Shown: positions 3,999 through 23,086 of the stretch, piece by piece
How the letters are laid out: every line of letters begins with the position of its first letter
How positions within the stretch are numbered: position 1 is the first letter of the stretch
Source: a phage
Sequence record: PZ386954.1
DNA length: 42,659 bases
Strand: one strand, 5' to 3'
Notes under the pieces: model-generated
Database searches by the model: none
Told to the model about the DNA's origin: nothing
What the model saw: only the letters and a program-made list of their open reading frames with translations
Translations under genes and position numbers: made by a program

Positions 3999-4194
3999 GG
4001 GTATCCGAAAGCTGAGGCAATGAACAGGCCGTGGGTGCAATACCCCGGCTTGAAAATTGACTATTTGTACGTGCCCCTCCCTCGACCCAAATGACCGCGC
4101 GTACCCCCATGACGTGTGCGCGGTTTAGCCTCGCGACGTGCGCGGTATTGTCTCGCGTGCGCTGCGCGGCGCGTCGAAAGGATTGCCTGCGTTC

Positions 4195-4600
4195 GGTATA
4201 GCTCGTGCGTGTCGCGTTTCATCGTCTGCCGTGTGGCGTGCTGTGCGCTGTCCTGCTGGCTGTGCTGTGTGCCTGCTGTGTGGGCTATCGGTGGCGGTGT
4301 GGTGCTGTCCTGTGGGGACGCTCTGCGCTGGCTGTGCGGTGCTGTGCGCTGCGCGTGGTCGGGCGGGTATCTGTCTCTTTTCGTGGCGCGGCGTGGTGCT
4401 GTGTGGTGGCGGTGGTGGCGGTGGTGCTGTCCTGTCTGCTGGTCTACTGTCTGCGCCTCCAGCTCTGCGCGTCATGCTCTGCTCCTGTCTGTCACCTGTC
4501 CTACTGCCTTCACGTTCTGCCGTCTGTCAGTCCTACGGCCTGCCATCCGTCATCCGTTCGGCGCTCGCTTGTTTCGGCTGCGCCGCGCTCGCTCTGCGTA
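4195..4600 (+). repeat. non-coding, extremely A-depleted (G/T/C-only) tract with short degenerate repeats (GCTGTGCG, GGTGGCGGTGGTG, CTGTC); probable genome-terminus or terminal-repeat region
   Basis: by direct count only 4 A residues in 4201-4440; overlapping ORFs in all frames here are low-complexity composition artefacts. Confidence 0.7.
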
Positions 4601-4605
4601 TCTAG

Positions 4606-4634
4606 CGATACTATATCACTATAGACACTTTCAT
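4606..4634 (+). promoter_or_regulatory. conserved element CGATACTATATCACTATAGACACTTTCAT; contains TCACTATAG identical to T7 promoter -8..+1; inverted near-identical copy at 25549-25580
   Basis: TCACTATAG at 4616-4624; about 130 bp upstream of the first sigma70 promoter, a T7 phiOL-like position. Confidence 0.45.
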
Positions 4635-4760
4635 TTACTTATTGATTTATAAGGATTTATTTACTGTATTCAATCGGTATTCTATCCAGTGTTAGGATTA
4701 TCTAATCAAACTTTAATCCTAATGATTACAGTAACTTATCACTTTTCTTGAAAATAATAC

Positions 4761-4789
4761 TTGCAAAGGTATTCGGTATTTGCTGTAAT
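4761..4789 (+). promoter_or_regulatory. sigma70-type early promoter P1 (TTGCAA-N17-TGcTGTAAT)
   Basis: -35 TTGCAA 4761-4766, 17-bp spacer, extended -10 TGc + TGTAAT 4784-4789, AT-rich upstream (AAAATAATAC). Confidence 0.7.
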
Positions 4790-4866
4790 TCATCTCGCCG
4801 GACAACACAGCGTCAACGTGTTGGACGGTGTAGGACGGTAACACTGCTCTTTAACAATCTGGTGTG

Positions 4867-4895
4867 TTGACAAGGCAAGCTCACTATGCTGTAAT
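4867..4895 (+). promoter_or_regulatory. sigma70-type early promoter P2 (TTGACA-N17-TGcTGTAAT)
   Basis: -35 TTGACA 4867-4872, 17-bp spacer, TGcTGTAAT ending 4895. Confidence 0.75.
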
Positions 4896-5004
4896 GCTTC
4901 CACGTCAGCCAGACAAGCCAAATAGTGATGGATAAACACGTTAACACCCACGCAGGCTAACTGGTACGGTTTAATTAACTCTGAACGGGCGCTGATTAAA
5001 TCGG

Positions 5005-5033
5005 TTGACAGGATGAAACGAGTATGCTGTAAT
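5005..5033 (+). promoter_or_regulatory. sigma70-type early promoter P3 (TTGACA-N17-TGcTGTAAT)
   Basis: -35 TTGACA 5005-5010, 17-bp spacer, TGTAAT 5028-5033. Confidence 0.75.
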
Positions 5034-5085
5034 ACACACCAGATTGACAGGGCAGCAAGCCAGTCAGTCAGAAGTAAAAAGGTAG

Positions 5086-5114
5086 TTGACAAGCTGAATA
5101 CGATGTGATGTAAT
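5086..5114 (+). promoter_or_regulatory. sigma70-type early promoter P4 (TTGACA-N17-TGaTGTAAT)
   Basis: -35 TTGACA 5086-5091, 17-bp spacer, TGTAAT 5109-5114. Confidence 0.75.
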
Positions 5115-5570
5115 CAGCACCGAGTTGAAAGGATGGAAAGCATCCTGCTCTGAGTGAACGCAAACTGGCCGCGTAGTGTCACGGCTCACTGGGTATCCGC
5201 CGCAGGTTGGAACTGGGTGAGGCATCGCCGAAAGGCAACGGTATCGCAACAATGCTAACGCCGTAGGGGTAGCGCCTGATGCAAGGTAACGGAGAAGCGC
5301 GATAGACGCAGCGCAGTATCAGCACAATACCAAACGTCTTATAAGGCGCGGAGTGAAGCGGGTAGGTAGGCAAGCTGGTAACGGTGAGCCGGACTGCTGG
5401 AGGACTCCTGAGAGTGGATGCAGACAATATCCACGGCGCGAAATGGGCGGGGCGATTTTTCAGGGTAGTGAATCCGACAAGCCAATCAATGCCAACGAGT
5501 GCAGACTGTACGGCGCGTCACAATGGGTTCACTATCCACCTGAAAATAGCCAACAACTGGAGAAATTAAT

Positions 5571-5960
5571 ATGTACCGTATCTATGCAAGCGCATATCGT
5601 CAGGGCAACGCTGAGTCAGTCAATCTGGCGCTTCATTGCAAGGCACTGCGAACGGTGCAGGACATGTTCGGAGTGGTTCCGGTCACACTGACAGGCAAGT
5701 TCGACAATGCGTATGAGTTAAGCATGGTCTTCCCTGTCGATGGAATCTACGAAATCCGACAGGCTGTTAAGCTGTTTTGTAAAGCCTTCGAACAGGACTG
5801 CATCATGGTAGTGACCAAAGACGACGATGCAATCTTCATGGACTCACCGTATCCGGGTAAGCCTGCTGGCAAGCTGGTCAGCAAGACTAACGAGGAAATG
5901 GAAGCCGGGCAGCATACCGCTTGGACTTACGATGGTGAGCAATTTTGGGTAGTGGAGTAA
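5571..5960 (+). CDS. first early protein (129 aa), function unknown
   Basis: ATG with GGAG Shine-Dalgarno; first ORF downstream of the early promoter cluster. Confidence 0.65.
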   Translation: MYRIYASAYRQGNAESVNLALHCKALRTVQDMFGVVPVTLTGKFDNAYELSMVFPVDGIYEIRQAVKLFCKAFEQDCIMVVTKDDDAIFMDSPYPGKPAGKLVSKTNEEMEAGQHTAWTYDGEQFWVVE

Positions 5961-15236: not shown

Positions 15237-17702
15237 ATGGCAATAAGAGCACAGGTAATCGACGTTGAGACTGAGAACCATGAGTGGTATGGGGAGCTGG
15301 CATCGCCGCGCTGCCCGGATAACTATGTGGTTATGCAGGGCCAGCGTGACTGTGTGCTGACCAAGGATGGCTGGGTATTCTACGAGCGCGAGGAGTATCG
15401 GTACAGTTCTCGTGAGGACTGGTTGCAGAACAAGAGTCTGCACCTGCATCCTGACACGAACATTCTGGTAGCTCACAACGCGCCGTATGAATTGAGCTGG
15501 TGGTTCGAGCATTACGGTGACGAGTTCATTGCCTTCCTCAAACGAGGTGGCCGTGTATTCTGTACCGCGTATGCTGAGTACCTGCTGACGCATCAGCAAT
15601 CCCAGTACCCATCCTTGAACGAGACAGCACCGAAGTATGGTGGTACTCACAAGGTGGATGCAGTCAAGGCAATGTGGGAGTCAGGCTACCTGACCAGCCA
15701 GATTGACCCTGAGCTGCTGAGCGAGTATCTGTCCGGGCCGTCCGGGGATATTGAGAACACGACCAAGCTGTTCGTTGGTCAGTGGGCTGAACTGACAAAG
15801 CAGGGCATGTTGCCGATGGCACTGACCCGCTTCGAAGGTATGCTCATGTGGGCGTACATGATGCACGCTGGTCTGCATGTTGACCGCGAGGTAGCCGAGC
15901 GCAACCGTCGCGAGTTACAGGATGCAATCAGTGGGCTGACTGAAACGCTGCTGAGTTACCTGCCAGCCGACATGCCGAAGGAAGCGCGTGAGCAATTCAA
16001 GTTCACGTCAGCTTATCACATGAGCGCCTTCGTGTTCGGTGGTGTGATGAAGTACAAGGCGCGAGTCGAGCGCCGGGATGCCGAGGGCAATCTCATTTAC
16101 GTGAAGGTGGATGCACCACTGTTCAAGCGAGGCAAGGACAAGTGGCTCAAGCATACCAGCGAGTGTGAGTGGGATGACGAGACTGGGTTGTGGTATGACC
16201 CGGTTGAGAAGGTACACCAGACTATCTACACCAGCGGCAAGCACAAGGGCGAGCCGAAGTTTGAGAAGCTGGCTACCGACGAGGTGGATACCAAGTGGGG
16301 TGAGGTGCTGTTCCGTATGCCGGGGCTTCTGCGTGTGCAGGATAAACGAGCGAAGGAGATTGCAGACAACCTCGAATGGGAAGACCCGAAGAAGCCGGGC
16401 GAGTATCTCCGGCGCACAGGTGATTGGGTAGGTAAGCGTAGGCTGGCCGATGGTTCCCCGGTATTCAGTACGGCGGGTGAGGTGCTGGACATTCTGGCAG
16501 CTCGTAAGATTCCCGGCGTGGTGGAGATTGCTGACCGGGCCAAGGCACAGAAAGACCTCGGCACCTACTACCTCAGCGAGACGTTCGATGAAGAAGGTAA
16601 CGTGACTGGCCAGTCGGGGATGATGCAGTTCATCCAGCCGGACAGTATCGTACACCACACCATCAACATGACCGCGACCGAGACGACGCGCTTATCTTCG
16701 GCGCGACCGAACAGCCAGAACTTGCCACGTAAAGGTACGAGTAAGGTTAAGCAGATGTTCACCTCCCGCTTTGGTGAAGGTGGCCGCATCGTTGAAGCTG
16801 ACTACTCGGCACTGGAAGTGGTGGGGCTGGCCGGGTTCAGTAAGGATAAGAACCTGATTCGTGCATTGCTCGATGGTATCGATATGCACTGTATGCGATT
16901 GTCAGCTCAGCTCAACGAGCCGTACGAGGACGTGCTTAAGAAGTGCAAGGATGAATCCCATCCTGACCATGCACGGTACAGTCAGATGCGTACTGACATT
17001 AAGCCGAAGGCGTTCTCATACCAGTACGGTGCAACAGCGCGAGGTATTGCTTACTCGACTGGTTGCTCAGAGGAAGAAGCGCAGGCGTTCATCGACAACG
17101 AGAAGGGTCTGTTCCCGGAAGTTGAAGAATGGTTCGACGCGGTTATCTTCCCTGCCGTAGAGAAAAGTGGACAGAGCAATGTATTCAAGGAGCAGGACGA
17201 GAACGGGCGGTGGCAGGTGTATCGCCGTGGTCACTTCCGTTCGCCGGGTGGAACTTGTTATTCATTCCGTCAGTACGAGAAATGGAACAAGGCGGCGCGT
17301 GCTCACCTGATGGAATACAAACCAACTCAGATGCGTAACTATCCTATTCAGGGTGAGACCGCATTTTGGGTACAGGGAATCGGTGGCCTGCTGTTCCGCT
17401 GGCTGCTATCGAACGACTTCTTTGGTGGGCGTGTGGTTCCCATCAACCAAGTGCATGACGCATTCTATTTCGACATTGCACCTGACTGCCCTCACGAGTT
17501 CTTCGTTGGACTCAAGGCAATCATGGAGAGCATCCCGGAATACTATAACCACGTATGGCCAGAGTATAACCTGACAGTGCCGTTCCCGGCAGAGGTGGAA
17601 GCAGGGCCAAGCATGTACGAGAAGCACCACGTAGAGACGACAGCCGATGAAGTGCTGGAGTTTAAGAGACAATTCCTGTTGAGTAAGGGTATCGCATTAT
17701 GA
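15237..17702 (+). CDS. DNA polymerase, family A (T7 gp5-like)
   Basis: 821 aa; DYSALEVVGLA (motif A), KPKAFSYQYGATARGI (motif B), INQVHDAFYFD (motif C), RPNSQNLPRK. Confidence 0.9.
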   Translation: MAIRAQVIDVETENHEWYGELASPRCPDNYVVMQGQRDCVLTKDGWVFYEREEYRYSSREDWLQNKSLHLHPDTNILVAHNAPYELSWWFEHYGDEFIAFLKRGGRVFCTAYAEYLLTHQQSQYPSLNETAPKYGGTHKVDAVKAMWESGYLTSQIDPELLSEYLSGPSGDIENTTKLFVGQWAELTKQGMLPMALTRFEGMLMWAYMMHAGLHVDREVAERNRRELQDAISGLTETLLSYLPADMPKEAREQFKFTSAYHMSAFVFGGVMKYKARVERRDAEGNLIYVKVDAPLFKRGKDKWLKHTSECEWDDETGLWYDPVEKVHQTIYTSGKHKGEPKFEKLATDEVDTKWGEVLFRMPGLLRVQDKRAKEIADNLEWEDPKKPGEYLRRTGDWVGKRRLADGSPVFSTAGEVLDILAARKIPGVVEIADRAKAQKDLGTYYLSETFDEEGNVTGQSGMMQFIQPDSIVHHTINMTATETTRLSSARPNSQNLPRKGTSKVKQMFTSRFGEGGRIVEADYSALEVVGLAGFSKDKNLIRALLDGIDMHCMRLSAQLNEPYEDVLKKCKDESHPDHARYSQMRTDIKPKAFSYQYGATARGIAYSTGCSEEEAQAFIDNEKGLFPEVEEWFDAVIFPAVEKSGQSNVFKEQDENGRWQVYRRGHFRSPGGTCYSFRQYEKWNKAARAHLMEYKPTQMRNYPIQGETAFWVQGIGGLLFRWLLSNDFFGGRVVPINQVHDAFYFDIAPDCPHEFFVGLKAIMESIPEYYNHVWPEYNLTVPFPAEVEAGPSMYEKHHVETTADEVLEFKRQFLLSKGIAL

Positions 17703-18592
17703 CCGCATCTGTATTGAACCGCATGAACTCCATCGTCGAACAGTATGTTGACGAGGAAGAACTTGACTTTAACGAAGCCACGTCTGGTGGTGGTAAGCTG
17801 CTGCCGGAAGGTAAGGCACTGGCACGTCTGGTTGGCTACATTGAAGTGGGGCCGAGCGTAACCAAGCAGGCACCGGACAAGCCGCCTGTCAATAAGTTCT
17901 TCCTCCAGTTCGCGCTGTGGGGCAAGGCCAAGAACGGCGAGACTTACCACGAAGTTGTCAATGGTAAGATGGTGCCGGGCAAGGTGCGCACGCAGTTCAT
18001 CGCTGTGAAGAAAGACCTCAACAGCAAGTCCGGCGCATACAAACTGTTCAAGCGTATGAACCCGGACAAGACTGCGAAGCACTTCGCGCAGCTTCTGAAC
18101 CACACCTTCATCGTTCCGATTATCCACAACGAATCGGGCGAGGGTGAGAACAAGAAGGTGTACGCCAACATCGACCTTGAGAACATCATGCTCGCGGTTG
18201 ACCCGGTGACTGACCAGCCGTACCCGGTGCCGGAGGTTGAGGACGAGACTCTGTTCAAGCTGTTCCTGTGGAACCGTCCGACCAAGGAAGACTGGGAATC
18301 CCTGTACATCGAAGGCAAGAACGACGATGGTAAATCCAAGAACTGGATTCAGGATAAGCTGCTGGAATCTCCAGAGTTCCCCGGCTCTCCGCTTGACCTG
18401 CTGCTGAATGGTGCAGGTGCTGGCTCAGCGATTGCCGAGCTGCCGGAGCTGGGCGACGTGGGTGCGCCGGAGGAAGTGGCCGAGGTCAAGGAAGAAGTGA
18501 AGGAGCTGGAGACGGCTGGCGCTGCTGACAAGACCAGCACCAAAGAGCCGGACGTAACTGGTGACGCTGACTTCGGGCTGCCGAGTCTGTAA
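17699..18592 (+). CDS. hypothetical protein (297 aa) with acidic C-terminal region
   Basis: ATG overlapping DNAP stop (ATGA); C-terminal EVKEEVKELE...DADFGLPSL. Confidence 0.6.
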   Translation: MTASVLNRMNSIVEQYVDEEELDFNEATSGGGKLLPEGKALARLVGYIEVGPSVTKQAPDKPPVNKFFLQFALWGKAKNGETYHEVVNGKMVPGKVRTQFIAVKKDLNSKSGAYKLFKRMNPDKTAKHFAQLLNHTFIVPIIHNESGEGENKKVYANIDLENIMLAVDPVTDQPYPVPEVEDETLFKLFLWNRPTKEDWESLYIEGKNDDGKSKNWIQDKLLESPEFPGSPLDLLLNGAGAGSAIAELPELGDVGAPEEVAEVKEEVKELETAGAADKTSTKEPDVTGDADFGLPSL

Positions 18593-19017
18593 TGGATTGC
18601 ATAGACCACGGTAAACGCGGCAACCACTTTGGCTACGCCACCACCACGAGGACGGTAGGTGGCAAGCGCCGGGCTGGTATCAAGCTGCATCGTCTGGTCT
18701 ACTGTGAAGCGCATGGCCTGTCTCTCCTTGACATTGAGGGGCAGGTCGTGCGCCATACCTGCGACAACCCGCGCTGCATTAACCCCGACCACATGGTACT
18801 CGGTACTCACCAAGACAATGTGGCCGACCGGGTAGCGCGTGGCCGTGGGGCAGTAGGCGTGAGGAATGGCAGAGCCGTACTGTGTCCCGCCGTAGTGGAC
18901 GCAATCCGTAGCCGCTATGCGAATGGCGGCATCAAGCAATCTGAGCTGGCTGAGATTTATGGCGTGAGTCAAACGCAGGTCAGCCGCATAGTGAGGGGAG
19001 AGTCATGGGAAAGTTAG
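18592..19017 (+). CDS. HNH homing endonuclease, paralog of 12196-12624
   Basis: MDCIDHG...HTCDNPRCINPDHMVLGTHQDN; C-terminal ELAEIYGVSQTQVSRIVRGE. Confidence 0.8.
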   Translation: MDCIDHGKRGNHFGYATTTRTVGGKRRAGIKLHRLVYCEAHGLSLLDIEGQVVRHTCDNPRCINPDHMVLGTHQDNVADRVARGRGAVGVRNGRAVLCPAVVDAIRSRYANGGIKQSELAEIYGVSQTQVSRIVRGESWES

Positions 19018-19979
19018 ACAGGCTACTCGCCAGAGCGGAGGTGGAACCTGACCAGTTTGATGGTTACGTGTCTGGTCGTATTCTGCTGTGTGATGCTGAC
19101 TCGACAGTCTACGTTGCGGCAGCAACCACGAAGAACATCGAGACAGCGAAGACGCGGTTCTGTTCCGGGGTGCTGACTGCTAAGTTCCTCGCCAATGCTC
19201 AGTCAGTCCGTATCGAGTTGACCGCTGCGGAGTGTACGAAAGCTGGACGGTACAAGCTGCGTGGGGCCAAGCTGTATCAGGGCAACCGAGACAAAGACCG
19301 CAAGCCCGGTCTGGTCGAGCCGTTGCGTAAGGCGATTGGCCGGAATATGTTCAACGTTCCTGATGGCGAGGATTGGTACGTCCACCTGAACTTCGAGTTC
19401 GAGGCAGACGACACCTTAATCATGGATGCGTGGACGATTGGCATTAACGATGCAGTAATCTACAGCGCGGATAAAGACCTGCGCTGCTGGCCGGGCAGGT
19501 TCCTCGACCCATACGATAACAAGGTACTGGAGCCATGCAAAGGTGTCGGCACATTGTGGTGGCATGAAACCAAGAGTGACAAGTCGCTCATTGGCCATGG
19601 CCCGATATTCTTTTGGGCGCAGATGCTGATGGGTGACACGGCAGACAACATCGCTGGTGTCAAGAAACTTGGCAAGCAGGCAGCTTACAATATGCTGAAC
19701 GCGTATCAGGAAACTGATGACGAGTCGGCAGTGGCTGAGCTGGTGCTGAGGGAATACATGGTGCGTGACCAGAACCCATGGCCAGAGGCTGTTGCCTTGT
19801 GGCTGTACCGCACGCCGACCTACTCATTCGCAGCTCACTTGAATACGCTGACCTTGAGCAAGGAGCTGCGTATCTGGTTGCATAAGAAATTGAATGAGGA
19901 ATGGTATGCGGAAAGTGACTGGCGCGACCTTGTTGCAGATGCGGAAGAATGCGATGGGTTATCCTTGCCCACTCTGTAA
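19005..19979 (+). CDS. 5'-3' exonuclease (T7 gene 6-like, FEN/H3TH)
   Basis: H3TH motif MGDTADNIAGVKKLGKQAA (GD..DNI.GV...G). Confidence 0.8.
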   Translation: MGKLDRLLARAEVEPDQFDGYVSGRILLCDADSTVYVAAATTKNIETAKTRFCSGVLTAKFLANAQSVRIELTAAECTKAGRYKLRGAKLYQGNRDKDRKPGLVEPLRKAIGRNMFNVPDGEDWYVHLNFEFEADDTLIMDAWTIGINDAVIYSADKDLRCWPGRFLDPYDNKVLEPCKGVGTLWWHETKSDKSLIGHGPIFFWAQMLMGDTADNIAGVKKLGKQAAYNMLNAYQETDDESAVAELVLREYMVRDQNPWPEAVALWLYRTPTYSFAAHLNTLTLSKELRIWLHKKLNEEWYAESDWRDLVADAEECDGLSLPTL

Positions 19980-20286
19980 TGAGCCGATGGTAGACCTCAA
20001 GCTCATGGTTGTTGACCACGACCATGTGAGTGGGGAGATTCGCGGAGTCATCTGTCGCTGGTGTAATGCTCAGCTCGGTAAGGTAGAGAACTCTGCCAAC
20101 CGAGCGAAGCGCCAGCGTACTGTGGATGATTGGCTGGACAGTGCCATCGAGTGGCGGCGTAAGCAACACACTGGTCTGATGTACCCAACGCACAAGACCG
20201 AGGCAGAGAAGAAGGCGGCAGTAGCCGACAGACGTAAGAAGGCAGCAGCCGCGAAAGCGCGAGCCTTATTGACTAAGGGGAAATGA
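19894..20286 (+). CDS. endonuclease VII-family junction-resolving enzyme; true start may be 19906 or 19954
   Basis: CPLCNEP...VVDHDHVSGEIRGVICRWCNAQLG matches the C..C...DHDH..G..RG..C..CN..LG signature. Confidence 0.7.
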   Translation: MRNGMRKVTGATLLQMRKNAMGYPCPLCNEPMVDLKLMVVDHDHVSGEIRGVICRWCNAQLGKVENSANRAKRQRTVDDWLDSAIEWRRKQHTGLMYPTHKTEAEKKAAVADRRKKAAAAKARALLTKGK

Positions 20287-21410
20287 TGACCAAGTTAACG
20301 AATCACCAACTCAAAGAAGACATTGCCGAAGGGCTTGGCACTAAAGCCATTGCGGATAAGCACGACATGACCGAGAGTGCTATCCGATACCGGAAGCGCC
20401 AGCTCGCCAAGAGCGGCTGGAGTCCTGAGCACGACATGACGAAGGAGGTGCCGGAGCCGTACGCGGTCAAGGGTACGTCCACGCTGTACGATAAGGACGG
20501 CAACGTTGTCATGCAGTGGGTGAAGACTGCGCTCGACCGTGAGCAAGAGCTGGCCATGTTGCAGGCAGCAGTTGATGCAATCAGTGAGAGCATCGTGCCG
20601 GAGCCGCCGCGCTTGTATGCAGGTCGCACAGCGCCAGCCGATTTGCTTAACCTGTTCGTCCTGACTGACTACCACCTCGGTATGCTGGCATGGGCAGAGG
20701 AGACTGGCGACGACTGGGATATGAAGATTGCGGAAGACCTGCTGGTCAAGTGGTTCGCCGCCGCCATCGACAGTGCGCCGCCAGCTCAGGTTGCTATCTT
20801 CGGACAGCTCGGTGACTTCCTGCACTGGGATGGGTTGGATGCAGTAACGCCATCAAGTGGTCATGTGCTGGATGCCGACACGCGATTCCAGAAGCTGGTG
20901 CGTGTGGCCATTCGAGCGCAGCGCCGCATCATTGGTATGCTGCTGGAGAAGTTCCCGCAGGTTCACGTAGTGTGTGCCGAGGGCAACCATGACATGGCCA
21001 GCTCAATCTGGATGCGAGAGCTGCTGCATGTGCTGTACGCCGACGAGCCGCGTGTCACTGTTGACCGCAGCCCCGACCCGTACTATTGCTATGAGCATGG
21101 CGAGACGGCGCTGTTCTTCCACCATGGTCACAAGCGTAAGGCAGAACAACTGGAGACTGTACTGGTATCCAAGTTCCGCGAAGTGTATGGCCGAACCAAA
21201 CACGCTTATGCACACGTTGGCCACCTGCATCACAAGAAGGTATTGGAGTCTGGTGTCATGGTTGTCGAGCAGCACCGTACGCTGGCGGCGAAGGATGCCT
21301 ATGCTTCTCGTGGTGGTTGGCTGAGTGAGCGCAGCGCGAGCGTGATTACGTATCATGCCCGGTACGGTGAGGTCGCACGATTCACCATTAGCCCGGAGAT
21401 GTTAGAGTGA
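20283..21410 (+). CDS. calcineurin-like metallophosphoesterase with N-terminal helix-turn-helix domain
   Basis: motifs DYH, GDFLHWDG, EGNHD, HHGH, GHLHH in canonical order; N-terminal AIADKHDMTESAIRYRKRQLAKSG HTH-like. Confidence 0.7.
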   Translation: MMTKLTNHQLKEDIAEGLGTKAIADKHDMTESAIRYRKRQLAKSGWSPEHDMTKEVPEPYAVKGTSTLYDKDGNVVMQWVKTALDREQELAMLQAAVDAISESIVPEPPRLYAGRTAPADLLNLFVLTDYHLGMLAWAEETGDDWDMKIAEDLLVKWFAAAIDSAPPAQVAIFGQLGDFLHWDGLDAVTPSSGHVLDADTRFQKLVRVAIRAQRRIIGMLLEKFPQVHVVCAEGNHDMASSIWMRELLHVLYADEPRVTVDRSPDPYYCYEHGETALFFHHGHKRKAEQLETVLVSKFREVYGRTKHAYAHVGHLHHKKVLESGVMVVEQHRTLAAKDAYASRGGWLSERSASVITYHARYGEVARFTISPEMLE

Positions 21411-21625
21411 CACGAACCCTGTACCAAGAAGATGTGGTGCAGCTTAAAGAAGATGGCCTCTCGATTGAGTGGGAGGCCAACACTCAGGTTGAGCTGTACA
21501 AAGATGGCACCGTCTGTATTTCTCAGGACGGTGAGGAAGTCTGGTTGCCTTGGGCGTACGTCCGAGATATTATCTTTGCTCTTGAGGAAGCACACGATGC
21601 ACATGAAAGACACCGTAGTAGTTGA
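21407..21625 (+). CDS. hypothetical small acidic protein (72 aa)
   Basis: GTG start overlapping upstream stop (GTGA); overlaps next gene start by 29 nt. Confidence 0.4.
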   Translation: MTRTLYQEDVVQLKEDGLSIEWEANTQVELYKDGTVCISQDGEEVWLPWAYVRDIIFALEEAHDAHERHRSS

Positions 21626-22100
21626 CTTGGATGGTACGCTGGCTGATGGCCGCTGGCGTTTGCACCTGCTGCCTCCACCGGAGCGTCGGCACCTTGATGA
21701 AGCGTGGGCCGAGTTCAACTTGGCTGGCGCTGACGACCCTGCGTTTCAGGACACGATTGACATTGTGAACGCTCTGGCCCTCACGTATCGCATTGTCATC
21801 CTGACCGGACGCGGAGCCGTGGCCCGTGAAGTAACAGAGCAGTGGCTCGATGAAGCTGGTGTGGTTTACGACAAGCTAATCATGCGGGAGATTGGTGACT
21901 GCCGTAAGGACACTGAGATGAAGCGTGCAGCGCTGGAGGACATCGGCATTGAGAACATCGTGTGTGCCTTCGACGACCTGCCCCACATCGTGGACTTCAT
22001 GCGTGGCCTCGGCATCACAGTGTATGAAGTGACCCGGTACGAGGACAACCATGAGTATGTCCACGCCAATGCCAAATACGATGGAGACAAAGATGAGTAA
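21597..22100 (+). CDS. HAD-superfamily phosphatase
   Basis: N-terminal VVVDLDGTLADG (DxDGT motif I); ATG at 21597 with GAGGAAG SD; track ORF extended upstream. Confidence 0.65.
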   Translation: MHMKDTVVVDLDGTLADGRWRLHLLPPPERRHLDEAWAEFNLAGADDPAFQDTIDIVNALALTYRIVILTGRGAVAREVTEQWLDEAGVVYDKLIMREIGDCRKDTEMKRAALEDIGIENIVCAFDDLPHIVDFMRGLGITVYEVTRYEDNHEYVHANAKYDGDKDE

Positions 22101-22671
22101 GAAGGGTAAGCAGTTTATCTTAGACCCGTCCCGTAATTGGGGTACTGGCACACTGCTGAGCGACATTGCTGAGCAGGGTATCATCCTGACGTACGACGAG
22201 CCGTATGACGTGCCGAACGATAGCCGGGACTACTACACCTGCGTGAAGGATGGTAAGACTCACCTGCTTGTGCTGGAGCCTTACGAGGTGAAGGAAGTCG
22301 AGACTGCATTCATCCCGGTTGACCCGTACGACCCGGCCTCTGATGTTGAGGTGGCCGTGGCCAAGAGTGCCGGGCCGGGCGGTATGAAGTTCGACGGCGG
22401 CAAGCCCCGCATGTCCTTGTTGTTCGATGGCTGCCCGAATGCGCTGGAGGCTGTGGCCAGCGTGCTCACCTTCGGCGCAGAGAAGTATGCAGCCCACTCG
22501 TGGCAGACTGTACCGGAAGGTGAGGAACGCTACAAGTCGGCGCTGCTCCGGCACCTGACGGCGGTGGGCAAAGGTGAGGAACTGGATAGCGAATCCAACC
22601 TACACCATCTGGCGCACGCCGCGTGCAATGCGCTGTTCATTCTGGAACTCGAATTAAGGAAACGCAAATGA
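22093..22671 (+). CDS. conserved phage protein; C-terminal domain resembles the family sometimes annotated dATP/dGTP diphosphohydrolase N-terminal-like or DUF
   Basis: KFDGGKPRMSLLF...ALEAVASVLTFGAEKY...RYKSALLRHL...HHLAHAACNALFILE; assignment from memory of the family, not searched. Confidence 0.5.
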   Translation: MSKKGKQFILDPSRNWGTGTLLSDIAEQGIILTYDEPYDVPNDSRDYYTCVKDGKTHLLVLEPYEVKEVETAFIPVDPYDPASDVEVAVAKSAGPGGMKFDGGKPRMSLLFDGCPNALEAVASVLTFGAEKYAAHSWQTVPEGEERYKSALLRHLTAVGKGEELDSESNLHHLAHAACNALFILELELRKRK

Positions 22672-22844
22672 GTGTTTTACTTTGGATTGTAGCTGTGGTA
22701 TGGTTTGCCCTGTTCTCTGTTGTCTGTCTGGCCGCGTGCGACCAGTACAACAAGACGCACGTTGACAGGTCTGGTGCAGCAGGCTTTATCCTGTGGTTAT
22801 TTCTGGCTGTCATCCCCGCTGTTCTGTTTGCCTGTCTTGCGTAG
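22668..22844 (+). CDS. small two-TM membrane protein (58 aa)
   Basis: ATG with AAGGAAA SD; two hydrophobic helices separated by DQYNKTHVDRSG. Confidence 0.5.
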   Translation: MSVLLWIVAVVWFALFSVVCLAACDQYNKTHVDRSGAAGFILWLFLAVIPAVLFACLA

Positions 22845-22852
22845 GAGGTTGT

Positions 22853-23086
22853 ATGAGTCGTTATCAAAGAGCCATTGAGGACACAGTGGTTGACCGTAAA
22901 GTGTGCGGTGCCTGCATGGGTAGCGGCACCTACCGTGGCATGTTGATTGGTGGGCAGGTAGTCCTGATGGATTGCGAAGCCTGCGGCGGTACGGGTACGA
23001 ATGACCCGGCACTGCAACATTCTGTACTGAGTGACTTGGGCCAGCGCAAACAAGCGCAGCCGGGATATGACGAACCAACGGAGTAA
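22853..23086 (+). CDS. small zinc-finger protein with two CxxCxGxG motifs (DnaJ Cys-rich-like)
   Basis: CGACMGSGT and CEACGGTGT; AGGAGG SD; immediately upstream of RNAP. Confidence 0.6.
   Translation: MSRYQRAIEDTVVDRKVCGACMGSGTYRGMLIGGQVVLMDCEACGGTGTNDPALQHSVLSDLGQRKQAQPGYDEPTE

Follow-up and report, generated by a model that had tools for sequence, protein, structure and literature searches.

The DNA nucleases of the metallophosphoesterase superfamily typified by T4 gp47, Mre11 and SbcD carry a capping domain and a Rad50-binding C terminus in addition to their catalytic core. Here we analyse a 42,659-nucleotide stretch of phage DNA (sequence record PZ386954.1, referred to as the window) in which the gene at 20283–21410 encodes a metallophosphoesterase that has neither of these elements and instead has an extra N-terminal helix-turn-helix (HTH), a conserved linker and a β-hairpin. 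The protein is a member of the PHROG 704 family, and we consider it about an even chance (roughly 0.5) that it is a DNA nuclease that depends on Mn but not on Rad50 and processes ends while the phage replicates and recombines its DNA.

Other described members of the superfamily differ from the phage protein in various ways. The proofreading exonuclease PolD DP1 and the inactive eukaryotic polymerase B-subunits are set apart by an OB fold and by a D-family catalytic partner, both missing here; the polymerase of the phage is annotated simply as DNA polymerase in its close relative LF82-23. The small phosphodiesterases of the MJ0936/YfcE type and the class III cyclic-nucleotide phosphodiesterases (Rv0805, CpdA and GpdQ) have no DNA-binding head. 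Lambda NinI shares the superfamily and occupies the same nin-region position, between NinG and Q, as many of the relatives described below, but it belongs to a different clade and PHROG and has no HTH. In Clostridium thermocellum Pnkp (CthPnkp), a metallophosphoesterase of the lambda-phosphatase-like clade is fused to a kinase and a ligase and is linked to kinase and phosphatase end healing; the phage gene precedes a polynucleotide kinase-phosphatase (PNKP)-type HAD phosphatase, with or without a P-loop kinase, but as separate genes and in only 13 of 83 loci.

At the nucleotide level the window shares about 93% identity with the Escherichia phages megetsur, mellemsur, HHU8 and LF82-23. These are podophages with a phiKMV-like organisation and belong to Bonnellvirus (Autographivirales; Autoscriptoviridae; Stentvirinae). 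Another Bonnellvirus, Escherichia phage altidsur, encodes a protein annotated as 'phosphoesterase' to which the window's metallophosphoesterase is 99.5% identical. Both the family and the fusion of HTH to metallophosphoesterase are thus already catalogued, and the window gene is an ordinary, near-identical copy of an annotated one. Homologs were found by tblastn in 2047 phage records, nearly full length in 1948 of these, among them T1-like Drexlerviridae, Webervirus, Kagunavirus, Jersey-like Salmonella phages, Vibrio phages, N4-like roseophages, Rhodobacter phages and Campylobacter phages. They are labelled variously as 'DNA repair exonuclease', 'calcineurin-like phosphoesterase', 'HTH-type regulator/nuclease SbcD' and 'HTH luxR-type domain-containing protein'. 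An exhaustive HMMER search returned 4928 clusters (50% identity) at E ≤ 1e-3 and 1227 at E ≤ 1e-30, and members turn up in proteobacterial genomes too, apparently within prophages.

Neither Pfam nor NCBIfam holds a curated model for this abundant family, no structure of it is solved, and a literature search found no functional or biochemical study of it. A 2026 preprint on viral folds covers Mre11–Rad50 fusions and solo components, not the HTH–metallophosphoesterase architecture, and the Bonnellvirus paper does not mention the metallophosphoesterase gene.

The catalytic core and fold

The window contains one long open reading frame (ORF) that coincides exactly with the gene, starting with ATG. 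The gene and its catalytic features, all on the plus strand, are as follows.

20283..21410, +: HTH–metallophosphoesterase gene, complete ORF of 375 amino acids plus stop, PHROG 704 member
20643..21407, +: catalytic core, residues 121–375, without capping domain
20667..20675, +: motif I, D129-Y-H131 in the context TDYHLG, aligning with GDWHLG of T4 gp47 and SDWHLG of Thermotoga maritima (T. maritima) Mre11
20811..20825, +: motif II, G177-D178-F-L-H181, aligning with GDLLH of T. maritima Mre11
20982..20993, +: motif III, G234-N235-H236-D237, aligning with GNHD of gp47 and Mre11
21120..21131, +: motif IV, H280-H281-G-H283
21219..21230, +: motif V, G313-H314-L-H316, aligning with GHFH of gp47

The five metallophosphatase motifs (DxH, GD, GNHD, H and GHxH) stand in canonical order in the 375-residue protein, as a sequence-only reading of this DNA had claimed. 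Shuffling the protein 200,000 times never preserved the ordered pattern, and among the window's 66 open stretches of 150 amino acids or more only 1 has it. Every motif residue is invariant among 44 relatives of 55–93% identity. In a more distant set (40 relatives, 36–58% identity), D129, H131, G177, D178, N235, H236, H281 and H316 are still invariant and conservation is 90% or higher at H181, D237 and H314, with the catalytic core as a whole much more highly conserved than the head. The two-metal phosphoesterase site is intact and the enzyme apparently active.

The superfamily assignment draws on these motifs, on a PHROG 704 ('DNA repair exonuclease') match and on the fold, the Pfam Metallophos model PF00149 being sub-threshold for the window protein (16.0 bits against a cut-off of 21.5). 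The PHROG match is full length (E = 8.7e-147, residues 3–374 on profile positions 2–389 of 390). PF00149 is matched at E ≤ 0.01 by 10 of the 40 distant relatives; the Pfam model is simply too distant, and motifs and fold settle superfamily membership. NCBIfam and PADLOC gave no match for the window protein, nor did a phmmer search of it against PDB sequences.

An AlphaFold2 model computed from the 44-sequence alignment (mean predicted local distance difference test score (pLDDT), 79.6; predicted template modelling score (pTM), 0.73) has N-terminal helices at residues 7–15, 20–26 and 31–43, a linker, a β-hairpin at 60–84, a helix at 86–101 and an α/β core from residue 121 to the C terminus, in which the metallophosphoesterase β-sandwich fold is found. 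The predicted fold is closest to nuclease members of the superfamily: the fold comparison figures are 13.2 for Mre11 (3qg5_C), 13.1 for MJ0936, 12.6 for PolD DP1 and 12.2 for SbcD, followed by 11.4 for GpdQ, 11.2 for Rv0805 and about 8 for the protein phosphatases PP5 and PP1.

Relationship to Mre11-type nucleases

Profile–profile alignment (hhalign) of the family profile with each comparator was used to place the family among characterised metallophosphoesterases. T4 gp47, which is SbcD/Mre11-like, was recovered with a probability of 83% (E = 8.7e-6, 184 aligned columns), and a small gp47 alignment at 79% (E = 1.5e-5); the gp47 profile is shallow, the homolog search with gp47 having given close relatives only. 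The alignment spans motif I (TDYHLG with GDWHLG), motif II, motif III and motif V, together with a segment after motif V, TLAAKDAYASRGGW aligned with TLTAGDENDPRGFW. When the family profile was compared with the PDB, it gave only Mre11 and GerE matches, all non-significant; in the T. maritima Mre11 match the motifs are nevertheless in register (SDWHLG, GDLLH, GNHD and GHIH). Similarity to Escherichia coli (E. coli) CpdA is confined to motif V (2.6%), with none beyond it, and lambda NinI (lambda phosphatase) gave no meaningful alignment (0.6%).

These comparisons suggest that the PHROG 704 family is a distinct clade, the nearest characterised relatives of which would be, by a modest margin, the Mre11/SbcD/gp47-type nucleases. 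One result weighs against such a placement, and with it against the proposed function: E. coli SbcD was not recovered, its hhalign match (2.6%) being local to motif III, and the margin in favour of Mre11/SbcD/gp47 likeness is thin for this reason.

The phage protein ends about 25 residues past the region that matches gp47 residue ~220 of 338, and neither the gp47 alignment nor the AlphaFold2 model shows a capping or Rad50-binding domain C-terminal to the core. A Rad50/SbcC/gp46 partner is annotated neither in the LF82-23 genome, nor in 8 annotated distant neighbourhoods, nor among the annotated recurrent neighbour clusters. With no capping domain and no Rad50 partner, we do not file the protein as a member of the Mre11/SbcD family; it most likely works like an Mre11 nuclease core.

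An exchangeable N-terminal head

The catalytic core is preceded by three further elements, again on the plus strand.

20301..20411, +: three-helix head, residues 7–43, predicted HTH of the LuxR/GerE/sigma-70 region 4 type, from the AlphaFold helices and the family head profile
20421..20441, +: conserved linker S47-P-E-H-D-M-T53, with P48 and H50 at least 90% conserved in alignment A1
20460..20585, +: conserved β-hairpin (60–84) followed by the helix 86–101, with G64, S66, G73, W79 and K81 invariant in alignment A1

Fusion of an HTH-like N-terminal segment to the metallophosphoesterase, the other structural claim of the sequence-only reading, is borne out at the level of the family. The head of the window protein itself falls below the Pfam HTH thresholds (best match HTH_23, E = 0.094). 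A profile of aligned heads from 25 family members matches the LuxR-type DNA-binding domains of FixJ (8e-4), EsrB (2.7e-3) and NarL (3e-3) in the PDB, and single relatives match GerE (2.4e-8), Sigma70_r4_2 (1.5e-9), HTH_1, HTH_8 and others. The HTH is thus recognised by family profile and by the three helices of the predicted structure, and we take the head to be a putative DNA-binding domain.

Across 269 retrieved family members the heads are helical, with a median length of 54 amino acids. Ten of them (~4%; P0037, P0051, P0073, P0080, P0082, P0086, P0099, P0107, P0113 and P0115) have a zinc-ribbon-like CxxC...CxxC head in place of the HTH, and the S-P-E-H-D-M-T-type linker is kept behind heads of both kinds. 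The head is absent from the Campylobacter phage homologs (~310 amino acids), which retain the β-hairpin. In a few family members, such as P0128, the HTH seems to be doubled. That a conserved hydrolase carries an interchangeable nucleic-acid-binding module speaks for a polymer (DNA) as the substrate, or for an activity localised to DNA, and against a dedicated sequence-specific regulator.

Translational coupling and genomic context

The gene lies between closely packed neighbours: its ATG shares the sequence ATGA with the stop codon of the upstream endonuclease VII ORF, its own stop shares GTGA with the GTG start of the next ORF, and an AAGGGG ribosome-binding site lies 5' of the ATG. From these overlaps and the ribosome-binding site we conclude that it is embedded in a translationally coupled operon. 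A scan for sigma-70 promoters and terminators around the gene gave nothing above shuffled expectation. In 41 of 80 family loci the gene likewise abuts the upstream ORF (≤10 nucleotides), and no operator-like inverted repeat upstream of the gene is conserved in the 25 family loci that have an upstream gap. The surrounding features of the window, listed in order from the phrog_862 gene, are these.

17699-18592, +: phrog_862 protein, 297 amino acids
18592-19017, +: HNH endonuclease, 141 amino acids, with a C-terminal HTH (HNH_3 8.7e-9, HTH_3 1.4e-5, phrog_59)
19005..19979, +: FEN-like 5'-3' exonuclease, equivalent of phiKMV gp22 (phrog_107, E = 2.9e-57; 5_3_exonuc)
19894..20286, +: endonuclease VII, equivalent of phiKMV gp23 (PF02945, E = 1.3e-13; LF82-23 annotation); the actual start probably lies beyond 19894
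21407..21625, +: 72-amino-acid ORF overlapping the metallophosphoesterase stop, conserved in close relatives only
21597..22100, +: HAD phosphatase of the PNKP 3'-phosphatase type (PF25109, E = 1.3e-14; phrog_415, E = 2.6e-55), its start (21597) inferred from the LF82-23 annotation
22051..22671, +: protein with a dATP/dGTP diphosphohydrolase N-terminal domain, equivalent of phiKMV gp25 (PF18909, E = 5.4e-33)
22793-23086, +: small zinc-finger protein, 97 amino acids, followed by the RNA polymerase gene

Downstream of the metallophosphoesterase the order is therefore 72-amino-acid ORF, HAD phosphatase, protein with the dATP/dGTP diphosphohydrolase domain, zinc-finger protein and RNA polymerase. 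The phiKMV backbone matches this arrangement, with gp21 (phrog_862), gp22 exonuclease, gp23 endonuclease VII, gp24, gp25 dATP/dGTP pyrophosphohydrolase and gp26 RNA polymerase. The slot of the metallophosphoesterase is occupied in phiKMV by gp24, a protein of comparable length (348 amino acids) from the RNase_H_2 superfamily (phrog_403, 'DNA polymerase exonuclease subunit'). We rejected gp24 as a distant homolog (hhalign 0.65%, unrelated RNase_H_2 fold) and regard it as a positional analogue only. That the gene sits in the slot of a phiKMV exonuclease of different fold is suggestive of an analogous job, without being proof of one. The sequence-only reading had placed the fusion outside the canonical T7/phiKMV gene set; it seemed unusual there because T7 and phiKMV alone served for comparison. 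As a separate observation, phiKMV gp24 (locus L152, 8460-9506) has a zinc-ribbon-like C-terminal tail, and the corresponding slot of the window holds the metallophosphoesterase, the 72-amino-acid ORF and the HAD phosphatase.

Neighbourhoods vary widely across 83 family loci. The PNKP-type HAD phosphatase recurs most often, lying directly downstream in the 13 loci mentioned above and followed by a P-loop kinase in 9 of these. The HAD-linked loci come from several unrelated phage groups (Bonnellvirus-like, Kagunavirus, Webervirus and others), some of them with start/stop overlap. The window has the PNKP-type HAD 3'-phosphatase domain alone, with no kinase (21597-22100), and in Kagunavirus and Webervirus (L003, 6122-7164; L004, 5120-6186) the HAD gene precedes a separate P-loop kinase-like gene. 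Such a pair is a split T4-Pnkp in reversed order, directly after the metallophosphoesterase.

Among 80 IMG/VR contigs, many are lambdoid and nin-like: NinB/Orf precedes the gene in 20, NinG/Rap precedes it in 11, and a Q-like antiterminator follows it in 17. When the IMG/VR contigs (L013-L085) are compared with the lambda nin region (L148), the family is seen in many lambdoid ones to sit between NinB/NinG and the Q-like antiterminator, at the position of lambda's unrelated NinI; two superfamily clades have thus been recruited to one position. Elsewhere the gene is surrounded by VRR-NUC, helicases and a lysis cassette in T1-like phages, by RusA and DNA ligase in a Campylobacter phage, and by thymidylate synthase, dCMP deaminase and deoxynucleoside triphosphate (dNTP) pyrophosphohydrolase in an N4-like roseophage.

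Proposed function and alternatives

We propose a two-metal, probably Mn2+, centre formed by D129, H131, D178, N235, H281, H314 and H316, in which H236 would serve as the transition-state histidine. The enzyme would cleave phosphodiester bonds in DNA without a Rad50 clamp, as an exonuclease, as a single-strand or structure-specific endonuclease, or as both. The small LuxR/sigma-r4-type HTH would keep the enzyme on DNA; in some relatives a zinc ribbon stands in its place or the head is missing. Co-transcribed and translationally coupled with the FEN-like exonuclease and endonuclease VII, the enzyme would trim or open DNA ends and intermediates in phage replication, recombination or repair, and may hand over ends to the downstream PNKP-type 3'-phosphatase (and kinase). 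DNA as the substrate, DNA binding by the HTH and this physiological role are what we infer from the comparisons above. A head, linker and hairpin on an Mre11-like core, with no capping domain or Rad50, differs from the characterised nucleases. A Rad50-independent, head-guided nuclease of the Mre11 type would, if real, be a compact alternative to the Mre11–Rad50 machine in small phages (T1-like, Jersey-like, Kagunavirus and Bonnellvirus) and lambdoid prophages, and would turn the widely used label 'DNA repair exonuclease' into a tested one.

The linkage to HAD phosphatase and kinase genes invites a different account, in which the enzyme serves a split polynucleotide kinase-phosphatase as end-healing partner, working on broken RNA or DNA ends as a 2',3'-cyclic phosphodiesterase or 3'-phosphoesterase, and the downstream HAD 3'-phosphatase (with a P-loop kinase elsewhere) restores ligatable ends, for instance after host anticodon nucleases or nicking defences. 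The proximity of Campylobacter phage homologs to DNA ligase fits this account, as does precedent: one report (PMC2190708) describes 2',3'-cyclic phosphodiesterase activity for the metallophosphoesterase domains of CthPnkp and lambda phosphatase. We nonetheless judge end healing unlikely, because 70 of the 83 loci have no HAD or kinase neighbour, motif II is without the Arg of the GDxxDRG type, hhalign to lambda phosphatase reaches only the 0.6% given above, and no RNA ligase is annotated in LF82-23. The GDxxDRG Arg is typical of the lambda-phosphatase/CthPnkp clade, and a HAD Pnkp of the T4 type already handles 2',3'-cyclic ends, which further weakens the case. A small-molecule substrate is doubtful to much the same degree. 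Here the enzyme would act on deoxynucleoside di- or triphosphates (dNDP/dNTP), dinucleotides or cyclic (oligo)nucleotide signals, serving nucleotide pools or blunting signalling defence, with the HTH for regulation or localisation; dNTP-pyrophosphohydrolase neighbours do recur, and a calcineurin-like and HAD pair that degrades dATP provides a precedent. Set against this are the swappable HTH or zinc-ribbon head with its implication of a polymer substrate, the contrast in hhalign between CpdA (2.6%) and gp47 (83%), the lack of a PADLOC match, the failure to find any anti-defence literature, and the position of the gene in a DNA-metabolism module and not among early host-takeover genes.

A related idea, for which we see only a slim chance, is that the protein is no repair nuclease and is instead a 'trigger enzyme' anchored to DNA or RNA polymerase, or a counter-defence enzyme, hydrolysing a nucleotide signal or dNDP/dNTP together with the neighbouring HAD phosphatase and dNTP pyrophosphohydrolase; were it so, the system would be a phage-side mirror of the bacterial calcineurin-like and HAD defence that depletes dNTP, with the swappable head directing the site. 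That the HTH binds specific phage or host DNA or RNA polymerase as a transcription or DNA-site regulator, with the metallophosphoesterase as its sensor or enzymatic switch (again a 'trigger enzyme'), is highly unlikely: although the HTH is of the transcription-activator type and the gene stands directly upstream of a Q-like antiterminator in lambdoid contigs (17 of the 80 IMG/VR contigs) and just upstream of the lysis cassette in T1-like phages, the core is far better conserved than the head, the head is swapped or lost, no upstream inverted repeat is conserved and the gene abuts the upstream ORF in about half of the loci (41/80). The sequence-only reading had left three functions open, of which the nuclease-like one is favoured here by the profile comparison that it had called for (gp47 83%, with E. 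coli SbcD at 2.6% on the opposite side), in which the cyclic-nucleotide phosphodiesterase CpdA also reached 2.6%. Its third candidate, a Ser/Thr/Tyr protein phosphatase like lambda NinI, finds some encouragement in the shared superfamily and in the NinI position between NinG and Q in lambdoid contigs, and we hold it to be extremely improbable. PPP enzymes bear the signatures GDxHG, GDxVDRG and GNHE. The phage protein has none of these, with GDFLHWDG at the GDxVDRG position and GNHD at the GNHE position, and the NinI alignment stands at 0.6%.

Neighbouring genes

The HNH endonuclease gene (18592-19017) lies between the phrog_862 gene and the FEN-like exonuclease gene, where LF82-23 has only a 198-nucleotide hypothetical ORF. 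It looks like a homing-endonuclease insertion and probably accounts for part of the 6% of an 8-kb query that close relatives leave uncovered. The phrog_862 protein (17699-18592) is conserved with phiKMV gp21 and shows a weak match to the phage replication-initiation family NGO0469 (E = 3.8e-4), far below the cut-off.

The 72-amino-acid ORF (21407-21625) overlaps the start of the HAD gene as well and marginally matches a Pfam integrase C-terminal DNA-binding (SH3-like) domain (22.1 bits against 21). We rejected it as a conserved partner of the metallophosphoesterase, as it is confined to Bonnellvirus-like close relatives and the small downstream ORFs of other phages are unrelated.

In the 206-amino-acid protein encoded at 22051-22671, the PF18909 match lies in the C-terminal half and the first ~100 residues match nothing. 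Related genes lie 1–3 genes from the metallophosphoesterase in an N4-like roseophage, in a Vibrio phage and in several proteobacterial loci. The label 'endolysin; inhibits RNA polymerase', given to two PHROGs that hit this domain, seems to be wrong. A frequent upstream neighbour of the family, the DUF6378-like cluster 'c6', was considered as a dGTP_diPhyd relative and rejected, hhalign having found nothing.

The 97-amino-acid protein (22793-23086), immediately upstream of the RNA polymerase gene, has CxxC/CxxCxGxG repeats. Its LF82-23 counterpart is annotated as an 'anti-termination Q-like protein' and has a sub-threshold match to the DnaJ central zinc finger (2.5e-4). Far from these genes, positions 4001–5000 of the window have an AT skew of -0.26, against near zero elsewhere, and contain imperfect tandem repeats at 4116-4157 and 4240-4278. 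LF82-23 has a stretch of ~1.5 kb without annotated genes at 4327-5844, roughly comparable by record coordinates only, and the window segment may be a genome-end or early-promoter region.

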